From IMG/VR virus record IMGVR_UViG_3300045988_110026: a stretch of 64,000 nt of DNA. One strand, given 5' to 3'. Both the position numbers and the translations under genes were made by a program. Below, piece by piece: positions 20,391 to 63,975 of the stretch; the stretch's first letter is position 1, and the number at the start of each line of letters is the position of its first letter. A model generated the notes under the pieces. It was not told the DNA's origin. It did no database searches and saw nothing but the letters and a program-made list of their open reading frames with translations. The DNA is from a virus.

Positions 20391-20553
20391 AATGCTTGGT
20401 CAGTTCTTCTGGTTCTAAATCTTGTCCAAAATCCATGTTAAAAATATCGTAATTAGTAAAGCACTTAAAAGCACTGTTTCCGCCGGCAGGAAATCTATGA
20501 ATGCTGCTTTTATTTCTTCAATTAGGCCCAAGTGTAACCTTGGGCCATTGTAT

Positions 20554-22254
20554 TTATTTTTTGTCATCTCCCTTTAACTTCTTTAAAGTATCTGCAATCG
20601 GAAGCTGATCAATGACTCCCAATGCCGGAGCGACGGTCTTGACAACATTGTTAAGGAAATTACCGGTACTGTTCTGACCGCCGTCAAATACCGTGATATT
20701 TCCGAGGTTAATGTGCTCAAATGCCTTAACCTGTTCTCCGGCAATTTCTTTCCACTGATTAACCATCTTGTACTGGATGGCGATCTGAGGATTGGATTCT
20801 GCTGCTTCCACCATAGCCTTAAATCCGTCGGCTTCTGCCATCAACGATTTTTTCTTACCTTCGGCTTCTGCCTCCAGCTTCATCTGAATAGCTTTTGCCT
20901 CCGCCTCAGCTTTTGCCAAATGTGCTGCTGCCTCTGCCTCAGCCCGGCGTTTGATCTTCTCGGCTTCAGCATCAGCTTGCAAGATAGCCTCTTCCTTCTG
21001 GGTTTCAGCCGGCACAATCTTTTCAGCCTTAAGCGCAGCCTGAACTTTCTTAGCCTTAGCTTCTTCCACTTCTTTGTCGGCAAGCTCTTTTGCTGTTTTT
21101 ACAGCCGCTTCCGATTTAACTTTTTCTTCTCCGGCCTTCTTCTCTGATTGAGCTTTGATGATCTGTAGTTCTGATACTGATACAGCAACCTCCTTCTGGG
21201 CATTGTTGTATCCTATAGACGCATTTTTCTCAGCCTCAGCCTTCTTAATCTGAGCTTCAGAGTCTTGTATTGCTATAGCTGCTTCCTTGTCAGCTTCAGC
21301 CTTATTCTTTCCGACTTCTTCCATTCTTTCAGCCTCGGCTTTATTTACTTCAAGTTCTGCCTTAGATCTTGCGATCGCTGATTCCTTATCAGCCAAAGTC
21401 TTTGCAATAACCGCAGCCCTATCTCTATCGGCTTGAGCTACACCGATCTGTTTTTCTTTATCGGTTAAAGCCAAAGCTACTTCTTTTTCTTTCTTTGTTT
21501 CAGCTACTACCGTTTCCTTTTCTTTTTCAGTATAGGCAATTTGAATCTCTTGCTCTTTTTGGGTATTAGCTACAGCCGTTTCTTTTTCCTTTTGCTGTAC
21601 AGCAATCTTAATAGCACCCAGCTTTTCCTGTTCTTCGATATTAGCCTGTGCTTCGTTCAGGGCCTTACTTTCAGCTTCTTTGCCAAGATTCATGATATAG
21701 CCGGCTTCGTCTCTGATGTCACTGATGTTGATATTTAGGAGGTAAAGGCCTAACTTATTAAGTTCGTTATCAATGTTTTTTCTTGCCTTATCCAAAAACT
21801 CATCCCTGTCAGAATTAAGTTTTTCAATCGTCATTTCAGCAATGATCAAACGCATTTGGCCATAAACAATATCCGTAATAAGATTTTCAGTAGATTCAGT
21901 ATCCATCCCCAAAAGCCTTTCTGCTGCATTCTGCATAATTTCAGGATTTGTGCTGATTGCTACTGTAATAGTAGTAGGTACATCCACTCTGATATTTTGA
22001 GACGACAAAGCACCGGTGAGCCTACAATCTATTTGCATAGGCTCCATAGACAAAATATCATAGCTTTGAATAATAGGCAAGACGAATGCCGCTCCACCAT
22101 GATATAATTTCGCCGATTTCTTTTCCCCACCTGTCTTACCATAAACGACCAAGACTTGGTTAGGCTTACATCTACGATACCTTGATAAGACTCCGATGAT
22201 TGTCAAAATAATCACTACAGCTAAAATAGCTGACACGTACATGATTGTTGTCAT
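20554..22254 (-). CDS. flotillin-like SPFH/band-7 protein (FloT/YuaG-like)
   Basis: N-terminal TM helix, SPFH core (VVYGKTGG...GAAFVLPIIQ...), then ~250 aa of EA/KE-rich flotillin-type coiled-coil repeats. Confidence 0.8.
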   Translation of the reverse strand: MTTIMYVSAILAVVIILTIIGVLSRYRRCKPNQVLVVYGKTGGEKKSAKLYHGGAAFVLPIIQSYDILSMEPMQIDCRLTGALSSQNIRVDVPTTITVAISTNPEIMQNAAERLLGMDTESTENLITDIVYGQMRLIIAEMTIEKLNSDRDEFLDKARKNIDNELNKLGLYLLNINISDIRDEAGYIMNLGKEAESKALNEAQANIEEQEKLGAIKIAVQQKEKETAVANTQKEQEIQIAYTEKEKETVVAETKKEKEVALALTDKEKQIGVAQADRDRAAVIAKTLADKESAIARSKAELEVNKAEAERMEEVGKNKAEADKEAAIAIQDSEAQIKKAEAEKNASIGYNNAQKEVAVSVSELQIIKAQSEKKAGEEKVKSEAAVKTAKELADKEVEEAKAKKVQAALKAEKIVPAETQKEEAILQADAEAEKIKRRAEAEAAAHLAKAEAEAKAIQMKLEAEAEGKKKSLMAEADGFKAMVEAAESNPQIAIQYKMVNQWKEIAGEQVKAFEHINLGNITVFDGGQNSTGNFLNNVVKTVAPALGVIDQLPIADTLKKLKGDDKK

Positions 22255-22286: not shown

Positions 22287-22781
22287 TTAGATGCTTAATT
22301 CTCCTTCTTCGTATTTTATATTCACCTTGTCACCGTTTTTGTAATTTTTTCCAGACAAGCATCTTACTCTCATTTGCTCTTGTCTTCCATTTTTCGAAAT
22401 ATTTACCATATAATGATTCTTCCCTGATCTAAACACTATCTCCACCTCTCTGCCATTTAAATCTTCCGGACATTCGTACACCATTTCTTGCTTTAACTTA
22501 AGAAGTAACTTATATACATAAAACAAAACGATAAAGAAAAACGACCCTATTACGATCCCTACTAAATGGGAACCCGAAAAGTATGTGGTCCAGCTATATC
22601 CAAGAATAAAATGTGTTATGCCCTTGAATGATATGATGTCCGACAAAGACATGCTTAAATCAGAAGCGCTGTTAATGTCAATATCCGTATCCAGATCAGA
22701 TCCTAATATCGACAACAAAAACTGTATAACAAAAGCAAATGACGCTATTAAAGCCATGCATAAAATTATATCACTTCCCAT
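22287..22781 (-). CDS. NfeD-like membrane protein (YuaF/YqiJ-like)
   Basis: Hydrophobic N-terminal half plus C-terminal beta-rich OB-like segment (GREVEIVFRSGKNHYMVNI...). Sits immediately upstream of the flotillin gene, as in NfeD-SPFH operons. Confidence 0.65.
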   Translation of the reverse strand: MGSDIILCMALIASFAFVIQFLLSILGSDLDTDIDINSASDLSMSLSDIISFKGITHFILGYSWTTYFSGSHLVGIVIGSFFFIVLFYVYKLLLKLKQEMVYECPEDLNGREVEIVFRSGKNHYMVNISKNGRQEQMRVRCLSGKNYKNGDKVNIKYEEGELSI

Positions 22782-23022
22782 ACCCTTCTGTTATTATTTT
22801 GTAAACAAGATCAGTCATATCTTTGATGGTCTCCATATCATAATCAATAATAACAATATTGAATTTTTGTTCCACCATCACATCAAGCTCAATCCGATCA
22901 ATAAAATCTAATCCAAGTTCTTTAAACGACACATCTTCTTCATGAACTATATCTATTTCCGAATTAAGAAACTGAGTAATAATTATATCCTCTATTATCT
23001 TTCTGATTCTTACTTTTTCCAT
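22771..23022 (-). CDS. acyl-carrier-protein-like protein; phosphopantetheine Ser replaced by Phe
   Basis: SFKELGLDFIDRIELDVMVEQKFNIVI aligns with ACP [28 protein letters not shown]. The DSL Ser corresponds to F here. Confidence 0.6.
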   Translation of the reverse strand: MEKVRIRKIIEDIIITQFLNSEIDIVHEEDVSFKELGLDFIDRIELDVMVEQKFNIVIIDYDMETIKDMTDLVYKIITEGYGK

Positions 23023-23723
23023 TGCTTTCTAATTTTGTTAAATAAGTATGTTTTTATGTTTTTCAATCTCTCTTTGTCTGTTTCAGAACTTCCGGTAAAT
23101 AAATAATCCGGATTGCCTTTAGCCGGCGGCGTAGGCAATTTAGATACGGCAAACAACCAATCCATTTCCTTATTCTTCTTAGGCTCCAAATAAGGCTCGG
23201 TAGCGATCTTAAATTTTTCAGCTATTAAGTCAAAGAGCTTTGAATTTTTAAGGTTCATATGAACTGAAAAAGCTTGAGAAGGTGGTTTCCATATGAAGTT
23301 ACATAAGCTCATTGTATAATCTCCTGACTCTGCTATATAAGATTCCGTTACCTGAAGTATGACCTCTTTCTTGAATGAGGTGTTACCCATAAACCAACAC
23401 AATCTGGATTCTGCTTCTTTTCTGCTGACACCTATGTCTTTTGAATATGATTCGTACATTCCTATCATAATCTTCAACGTTTCCAGAACCTCGTCTGTCA
23501 TTTCCGGTGTCTCTATATAATTCACAAAAGACGTTCCCTTGTTGGTCAATCTCATCACGCCTGATTTTAATTTCTCAACCAGGCCAAGCTCTATATACCT
23601 CCCAGCATCTTCTTCCGGCATGGCTTCGATCATAACCGAATCCTTCTGTCTTATGGCAAGAAGATTGGCAAGATCATTAGGAGTCATGTCTGATGCTGCA
23701 AGTTGTCTGAAATTGATGTACAT
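23010..23723 (-). CDS. hypothetical protein
   Basis: 237 aa. Confidence 0.5.
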   Translation of the reverse strand: MYINFRQLAASDMTPNDLANLLAIRQKDSVMIEAMPEEDAGRYIELGLVEKLKSGVMRLTNKGTSFVNYIETPEMTDEVLETLKIMIGMYESYSKDIGVSRKEAESRLCWFMGNTSFKKEVILQVTESYIAESGDYTMSLCNFIWKPPSQAFSVHMNLKNSKLFDLIAEKFKIATEPYLEPKKNKEMDWLFAVSKLPTPPAKGNPDYLFTGSSETDKERLKNIKTYLFNKIRKQWKK

Positions 23724-23725
23724 TC

Positions 23726-23923
23726 TTAATCAGCTTTAATAAAAATAACATTCTTGTTATCTTGTCTATCAACATGTCCACATGGACCAATAATTATGTC
23801 TGTACATGAACAAGAATCGTAATCTTCGAATATACACCTATCGCATTTATCACCTTCCACACATTTTAATCTTACAAGTCCGGCAGTAAATACTTCTCCT
23901 ACTTTAAATTCCTTCTTTTCCAT
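23726..23923 (-). CDS. small Cys-rich protein
   Basis: 65 aa, 8 Cys. Confidence 0.4.
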   Translation of the reverse strand: MEKKEFKVGEVFTAGLVRLKCVEGDKCDRCIFEDYDSCSCTDIIIGPCGHVDRQDNKNVIFIKAD

Positions 23924-63886: not shown

Positions 63887-63903
63887 TGTCTTACTTTTTT
63901 TAG

Positions 63904-63975
63904 AGGCTTGTGGCGGAATCGAACCGCCCTACGAGATTTTGCAGATCCCTGACTAAACCACTCATCCAACAAGCC
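63904..63975 (-). tRNA. tRNA-Cys (anticodon GCA), 72 nt, CCA not encoded
   Basis: Hand-folded. Acceptor GGCTTGT/ACAAGCC; D-arm with GG; anticodon stem GGGAT/ATCTC with loop CTGCAAA; T-arm GGCGG-TTCGATT-CCGCC; discriminator T. Confidence 0.75.

Follow-up and report, generated by a model that had tools for sequence, protein, structure and literature searches.

A crAss-like phage acyl carrier protein with phenylalanine in place of its attachment serine

The acyl carrier protein gene and its fold

The window considered here is the 64,000-nucleotide (nt) stretch of viral DNA held in IMG/VR as record IMGVR_UViG_3300045988_110026, and the element of interest is a phage acyl carrier protein (ACP) gene at 22771..23022 on the minus strand, present as an allele in which serine 40 is replaced by phenylalanine (S40F). 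The open reading frame (ORF) has an ATG start and encodes 83 amino acids (aa), the protein beginning MEKVRIRK...GLDFIDRIELDVMVEQKF...; its assignment draws on the ORF call, ACP profiles, a fold obtained with AF2 and Foldseek, and an annotated orthologue. The latter belongs to csAssE-Sib (OR575929.1), a 151-kb human-gut phage to which the window region is 97% identical. This phage is crAss-like by its ring and muzzle proteins and its diversity-generating retroelement (DGR), and its orthologue, WOZ57347.1, was already annotated 'acyl carrier protein'. The annotation of the 151-kb genome includes no phosphopantetheinyl transferase (PPTase) and no fatty-acid or polyketide enzyme. The window gene is the orphan ACP of a ~150-kb crAss-like phage of the csAssE-Sib type, whose host is likely Bacteroides or Phocaeicola.

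A preliminary description of this DNA had recognised the protein as an ACP homologue along its full length, and profiles, phmmer and structure prediction all bear this out. NCBIfam ACP models match residues 8-76 at E = 1.9e-5 to 4e-5, and PHROG 5934 ('acyl carrier protein') matches at E = 5.4e-7. A phmmer search of the PDB gave 104 matches at E <= 1, the 60 listed being ACPs without exception; the top match among those listed is the Plasmodium falciparum ACP 3gzl (E = 3.8e-5). The window allele falls under curated thresholds, scoring 18.2 bits against Pfam PP-binding (PF00550; gathering score 20.8) and ~24 bits against the NCBIfam ACP models (cut-offs 66-106); Ser-bearing sister alleles pass the Pfam model, P0047 at 26.7 bits and P0189 at 34.7 bits. 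Structure prediction agrees. An AF2 run from the single sequence was unusable (pLDDT 40) and was superseded by one with a 26-sequence alignment, which gave pLDDT 87.5 and pTM 0.78. All 50 PDB matches listed by Foldseek for this model are ACPs at probability 1.00, the best of those listed being 4dxe_I (TM 0.78/0.84, rmsd 1.6 Å). Judged by its profile matches and its modelled structure, the window protein is an ACP homologue over its whole length, with a predicted small helical-bundle ACP fold. Its own family is tiny: a search of 1.84 billion representatives returned 46 matches, mostly fragments, together with weak matches to ordinary ACPs.

Helix II, the ACP recognition helix, spans residues 40-54 in the AF2 secondary structure (22861..22905, minus strand) and thus begins at residue 40 itself. 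It holds both the majority of the variable codons (40, 41, 43, 47 and 48) and the conserved acidic residues D42, E45 and E51. The full acidic set of D39, D42, E45 and E51 is present in the window protein, and in the alignment of all allele classes E51 is invariant while D39 and E45 are nearly so. By alignment, we take these four residues to be the equivalents of E. coli D35, D38, E41 and E47.

Codon 40 (22903..22905, minus strand) reads TTT and encodes phenylalanine at the position of the phosphopantetheine-attachment serine, as judged from the sequence, HMMER alignment to ACP structures, and codon counts. In the ungapped HMMER alignment to 3gzl, the query 'LGLDFIDRIEL' lies over 'LGADSLDLVEL', placing Phe40 on the serine of the DSL motif. 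The DFI reading of the preliminary description is upheld by this alignment. Because phenylalanine occupies the attachment position, the window copy cannot be phosphopantetheinylated or carry acyl chains, and it follows from ACP chemistry that the protein is locked in the apo state.

The same description had named two ways in which this reading could fail, a corrected alignment that restores the serine and a sequencing error; realignment restores none, and Phe40 is not a sequencing error, since four indexed blocks of other public assemblies contain exactly the same 83-aa protein, with three contigs read. The related notion that codon 40 was altered by assembly error, or hypermutated by the phage DGR, has on its side that csAssE-Sib carries such an element and that codon 40 does vary between genomes. 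It is nonetheless refuted, its remaining probability vanishingly small, by the recovery of the same protein from several assemblies, by the dozens of independent samples that yield further F, Y or P alleles, by a window in which the ACP gene is neither duplicated nor matched by a template repeat, and by a mixed substitution spectrum without adenine specificity (G>A 18, A>G 13, T>C 13). The last two observations rule out DGR-driven variation of the ACP.

Serine, phenylalanine, tyrosine and proline at codon 40

For unbiased counts, two collections were scanned with a DNA pattern that accepts any codon at position 40. The IMG/VR scan gave 117 TCT and 1 TAT (n=118), and the metagenome scan 69 TCT, 1 TTT, 1 CCT and 1 TAT (n=72). 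Over both, TCT (Ser) accounts for 186/190, with 1 TTT, 1 CCT and 2 TAT; serine-less alleles make up about 2% of the 83-aa class, and Ser about 98%. The preliminary description had implied a serine-less ACP lineage, which these counts contradict: the window carries a rare allele of a gene that ordinarily keeps its serine. The csAssE-Sib orthologue itself has Ser at position 40. Among the 120 closest proteins (at least 92% identity), the 116 of 83 aa have S 83, F 27, Y 3 and P 3 at this position, a list in which Phe is over-represented because it was ranked by similarity to a Phe-bearing query. The remaining four, of other lengths, have Ser too, and within the 120 the variants found on the largest numbers of contigs all carry Ser.

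The origin of the window allele can be traced closely. Over 1437 nt covering the genes for an upstream 237-aa protein, the ACP and a downstream NfeD-like protein, the window differs from the Ser-bearing locus L002 by a single base besides codon 40, while 40 differences separate it from the closest of the other non-Ser alleles. Protein and haplotype comparison places ATT (Ile) at codon 41 of the window (22900..22902, minus strand) and GTT (Val) at that codon of L002, from which we infer that GTT to ATT is the one further base difference. The existence of both P0002 (F40, V41) and P0001 (F40, I41) suggests the order of events, with S40F first and V41I second. The window allele is a recent, rare TCT to TTT change, a C-to-T transition in a normally Ser-bearing gene.

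This change is not the only one of its kind. In the same 1437-nt comparison, non-Ser alleles sit on different haplotypes, most of them nearer a Ser haplotype than any other non-Ser group. Besides the window (F), the serine-loss haplotypes are L093/L094 (F), which lie 3 differences from the Ser-bearing L076, the clades L087-L092 (F) and L100-L103 (F), L096/097/099 (P), L104-L106 (Y) and L037 (Y). They make up at least six, and probably eight or more, independent losses. This count of events is valid, but since most of the non-Ser loci were fetched for being non-Ser, their share in the locus set is not a frequency. Some of the alleles are old and widely distributed. P0007 (F) is carried by 18 contigs of unrelated studies, its clade spanning up to 24 differences, and P0034 (P) turns up in the index of 26 blocks of the collection; F clades also contain Y variants on the same backgrounds. 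In 142/142 loci the ACP ORF is full length (83, 84 or 86 aa).

A second class of allele occupies exactly the same slot. An exhaustive representative search returned P0153, which is 39% identical to the window ACP and reads DYL in place of DSL. Its class comprises ~20 variants of 84-87 aa, every full-length variant listed having Tyr or Phe at the attachment position. Nucleotide identity between the window and this 84-aa class is 94-100% in the flanks and 53-57% over the ACP, and the flanking proteins are 97-100% identical to those of the window. The class is conserved within itself and abundant (P0175 in 111 blocks, P0167 in 82), which shows that a serine-less ACP-like protein is maintained in this phage. 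A third class, represented by P0189 (86 aa, DSL), combines parts of the other two as a mosaic and retains both the serine and the NfeD-like/flotillin pair. The orthologue comparison proposed in the preliminary description therefore has a divided outcome: close orthologues overwhelmingly carry Ser, and yet the residue has been lost repeatedly and is replaced by Tyr or Phe throughout the 84-aa class. Loss of the serine recurs at this gene, is tolerated there and has in some cases become fixed.

Neighbouring genes and the variability of the slot

The ACP gene lies in a replication block whose order is DnaB-like helicase, 200-aa protein, 65-aa protein, 237-aa protein, ACP, 164-aa membrane protein, flotillin, two ORFs of 50 aa and 119 aa, and PD-(D/E)XK nuclease. 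Of most immediate concern are the two genes that follow it. The 164-aa membrane protein, called 'NfeD-like' (22287..22781, minus strand), overlaps the ACP stop by 11 nt; neither it nor its bacterial counterpart matches Pfam NfeD, so the label rests on its position upstream of flotillin. The 566-aa flotillin (20554..22254, minus strand) combines SPFH/Band 7 and Flot domains (Pfam Band_7 2.5e-25, Flot 2.2e-9). At the amino-acid level it shares 62-67% identity with the flotillins on Bacteroides, Phocaeicola and other Bacteroidales chromosomes, and the 164-aa protein is 32-40% identical to a 165-aa protein encoded just upstream of the Bacteroides/Phocaeicola flotillins. By these identities the pair was captured from Bacteroides/Phocaeicola, separately from the ACP. 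None of 31 bacterial loci has an ACP-like ORF near the pair; one locus was read throughout, and there the pair has upstream of it an unrelated ORF of 249 aa, encoded on the other strand and, from its sequence, taken here to be a TruA-like pseudouridine synthase.

These findings bear on the suggestion, made in the preliminary description, that the ACP-like protein is a structural adaptor of an NfeD-like/flotillin membrane scaffold. The contiguity of the three genes and the overlap of the ACP and NfeD-like ORFs speak for the idea, but overlaps of a few bases occur throughout this gene block and so carry no functional information. The 84-aa class has neither membrane protein nor flotillin downstream in 12/12 loci, which speaks against an adaptor; this absence could also be read as tying the serine to the pair, although the haplotype counts as one evolutionary event, not twelve. 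Set against these points, the source loci of the pair in Bacteroides/Phocaeicola have no ACP-like ORF, and flotillin is readily lost where the ACP is not: it is intact in 76 of ~110 Ser-bearing loci, is missing or split in the others, is deleted or frameshifted in ~30% of related genomes, a presence/absence polymorphism of the phage population, and is scored 'none' in 23 of the ~110; at least 23 flotillin-less loci with Ser keep an intact ACP. Conversely, the serine-less F and Y alleles, the window included, retain an intact pair. The adaptor proposal is largely refuted and very improbable. A narrower association, between serine loss and flotillin loss, was hinted at by the Pro allele and dissolved once the 23 flotillin-less loci with Ser were counted.

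The ACP gene differs sharply from its surroundings in its rate of change. The ratio of non-synonymous to synonymous diversity (piN/piS) is 0.45 for the 83-aa class, and 0.005-0.07 in six of seven neighbours (the 200-aa, 237-aa, membrane-protein, flotillin, nuclease and helicase genes). Parsimony reconstruction, over the IMG/VR loci only, gives a ratio of non-synonymous to synonymous changes of 1.42 for the ACP, with 0.25 and 0.31 for its two neighbours. In these loci the ACP changes cluster in codons 23, 32, 41, 43, 47, 48, 63 and 65; taking column variability together with parsimony, the hot codons are 40, 41, 43, 47, 48, 63 and 65. In our own mapping by alignment, most of these presumably correspond to S36, L37, T39, V43, M44, A59 and K61 of E. 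coli AcpP, which would place the hot sites on the surface around the prosthetic group and in the cleft between helices II and III. Such a distribution suggests diversifying selection on the ACP. The gene is a fast-evolving accessory island within an otherwise nearly invariant block of replication genes.

Several further features of the region were noted. In six deletion products (P0121, P0124, P0127, P0133, P0134 and P0139), the N-terminal part of the ACP is fused to another C-terminus, contributed by the membrane protein, by flotillin or by a small ORF at window positions 20415-20567, and several of the junctions lie at or just past the DS(I/L) motif. A second hypervariable islet is formed by a small Cys-rich ORF (window 23726-23923, minus strand; 65 aa, 65-69 aa in relatives), the seventh of the neighbours compared above, which has a piN/piS of 0.9 and a nucleotide identity of 60-82% where its flanks are at 95-100%. 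Two single codons stand out as well: codon 29 of the 237-aa protein toggles between S, T and A, with 18-21 non-synonymous parsimony changes and no synonymous ones, and codon 153 of the membrane protein has 9-13 non-synonymous changes and again no synonymous ones. Recombination shuffling or site-specific selection may account for this pattern.

The 237-aa protein (23010..23723, minus strand) lies upstream of the ACP, its last 13 nt overlapping the ACP start, and accompanies every ACP allele class. It has no Pfam or PHROG match, its PDB matches are at chance level (E >= 0.18), and PADLOC gives only a weak match to LmuC (E = 0.011). As a candidate PPTase or ACP partner it was rejected on the lack of domain matches and of co-variation. 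The PADLOC defence search returned nothing for the ACP, the NfeD-like protein or flotillin. Farther afield, one relative carries an IS605 OrfB/TnpB-type gene between the DnaB-like helicase and 200-aa genes (L369, 239-1429), and csAssE-Sib has two TnpB genes elsewhere in its genome. The only tRNA in the window is a tRNA-Cys (63903-63975, minus strand), and the tRNA cluster of csAssE-Sib likewise includes tRNA-Cys.

Proposed function and comparison with known systems

What, then, would an ACP without its serine do? The usual allele, with its DS(I/V/L)D motif, would acquire its cofactor from host AcpS and, as holo-ACP, act on the acyl-ACP pathways of the host; since the phage has no annotated PPTase or fatty-acid enzyme, this allele would have to rely on the host enzyme. 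The Phe allele would still fold as an ACP and still present the acidic helix II face of D39, D42, E45 and E51. It could thereby keep a role that needs no cofactor, binding or competing with the ACP-client protein, whichever it is, that the phage ACP engages; its aromatic side chain would lie where the pantetheine arm does, like Phe113 in the mitochondrial ACP of Plasmodium. That the window protein is an apo-locked variant retaining such a binding role is the reading we favour, and we give it about an even chance of being correct.

A number of observations weigh against it. Ser is kept in ~98% of genomes of the 83-aa class, from which it follows that the cofactor matters for the main function and that the Phe allele may simply be impaired. 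The replacements F and P are what the two transitions of TCT produce, and the spectrum of replacements can in part be put down to mutation bias. The whole-gene pairwise dN/dS of the ACP is 0.2-0.5, not above 1, and the parsimony counts are inflated by recombination; positive selection is accordingly not demonstrated. Residues of the 237-aa protein do not co-vary with ACP class or Ser state, with the exception of the last, which lies inside the swapped segment. Rare truncated or fused ACP variants indicate that the gene can be lost, and the manner in which non-Ser loci were sampled, described above, means that their share in the locus set is not a frequency.

Many of the same observations are those expected if the ACP is a dispensable accessory gene that S40F inactivates, the allele persisting by drift or hitch-hiking. 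The rarity of non-Ser alleles, with Ser in 186/190 genomes, is as expected at mutation-selection balance, and the identity of F and P as transition products of TCT fits equally. The region is prone to deletion, as shown by the ~30% of loci with flotillin lost or split, and ACP::NfeD-like and ACP::flotillin fusion or truncation products occur; constraint on the ACP is about ten-fold weaker than on most neighbours. However, the ACP ORF is intact in 142/142 loci while flotillin is often lost, and the serine-less clades, although old and geographically widespread, are still without stop codons. Neutral loss of function should yield more nonsense and frameshift alleles than single-codon changes, and it sits poorly with an 84-aa serine-less class that is both conserved and abundant. 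Tolerated loss of function is the main rival to a retained binding role, and holds an appreciable, if minority, share of the probability.

A bolder proposal takes the phage ACP to be a mimic engaged in an arms race. It would bind a host ACP-client via helix II, with the patch around the attachment site diversifying under host pressure, and the serine-less F and Y alleles would be adaptive dead-end inhibitors, repeatedly selected in some hosts and eventually fixed in the 84-aa class. Candidate targets include a lipid or lipid-A/capsule enzyme, AcpS, or a defence component. The underlying decoy or inhibitor idea, already raised in the preliminary description, fits the retained acidic helix II, the repeated loss of serine, the aromatic replacements and the clustering of variation at the attachment site. 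Taken as a whole, this scenario is rather unlikely, and if it were true the protein would be the first viral cofactor-free ACP decoy, parallel to the mitochondrial ACP of Plasmodium.

Whichever account holds, the locus offers a natural allelic series of Ser, Phe, Tyr and Pro, with a divergent serine-less class besides, in nearly identical genomes of a human-gut crAss-like phage. Such a series makes it testable whether a phage ACP acts as a carrier or as a protein-binding module; orphan ACP genes are common in phages. Should the serine-less forms be functional, they would constitute a viral counterpart of the cofactor-free ACP of Plasmodium and a possible tool for blocking ACP-dependent enzymes of Bacteroides; should they be non-functional, the window carries an ordinary rare missense allele in an accessory gene.

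The closest structural relatives are the bacterial type II ACPs, exemplified by AcpP and the Staphylococcus aureus protein 4dxe, together with the P. falciparum apicoplast ACP 3gzl. These share with the window protein its length, its helical-bundle fold, the LGxD-x-(I/L)D motif at the start of helix II, the acidic helix II and the EqkF motif. They differ in having the attachment serine where the window allele has Phe, and identity to solved ACPs is ~25-30%. The window gene is, moreover, an orphan in a phage replication block, in a phage type whose csAssE-Sib genome has no annotated PPTase or acyl-processing enzyme. That an ACP lacking its prosthetic group can still bind or affect clients has precedent in E. 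coli, where apo-ACP supports the synthesis of membrane-derived oligosaccharides and an excess of apo-ACP inhibits growth, but the E. coli protein is a host housekeeping protein with no link to the phage protein.

Standalone ACPs of ~80 aa, whose neighbours are early or replication genes and which have no evident partner in biosynthesis, are also found in other phages (PHROG 5934; WOZ57347.1; BFVD entries from Motura, phiCbK, PhiW-14 and crAss-like viruses), from which the window copy differs in the absence of its attachment serine. A further instance is P0166, in which Ser is present: this orphan ACP lies at L177 and L178 (6001-6249) among the early genes of an unrelated temperate phage with an integrase and a thymidylate synthase, and a homologue search with it returned only two proteins. 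Partnerless standalone ACPs thus recur in phages. Our literature searches found no paper on csAssE-Sib and none establishing the function of any phage ACP; the single paper listed for crAss-like phages together with ACP deals with freshwater jumbo phages, and the single one listed for crAssphage together with flotillin is a review on another subject.

The most instructive parallel is the mitochondrial ACP of P. falciparum, which has undergone the same Ser-to-Phe change, is free of phosphopantetheine, and requires Phe113 for binding to Isd11 of the Isd11-Nfs1 complex (PMC8547962). The residue change and its position are the same as in the window allele, and the 84-aa phage class is likewise fixed for an aromatic residue. 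Plasmodium, however, is fixed for the change and has a known, co-adapted partner in the LYR protein Isd11, whereas the phage Phe is a rare allele at ~2%. Fixation of the Plasmodium kind is not seen in the 83-aa class, with its 186 Ser in 190, and is found only in the 84-aa class. Phage ACPs and a serine-less ACP in Plasmodium were, each on its own, already known; what is new here is an allelic series at the attachment codon together with a fixed serine-less class, both within one abundant gut phage.

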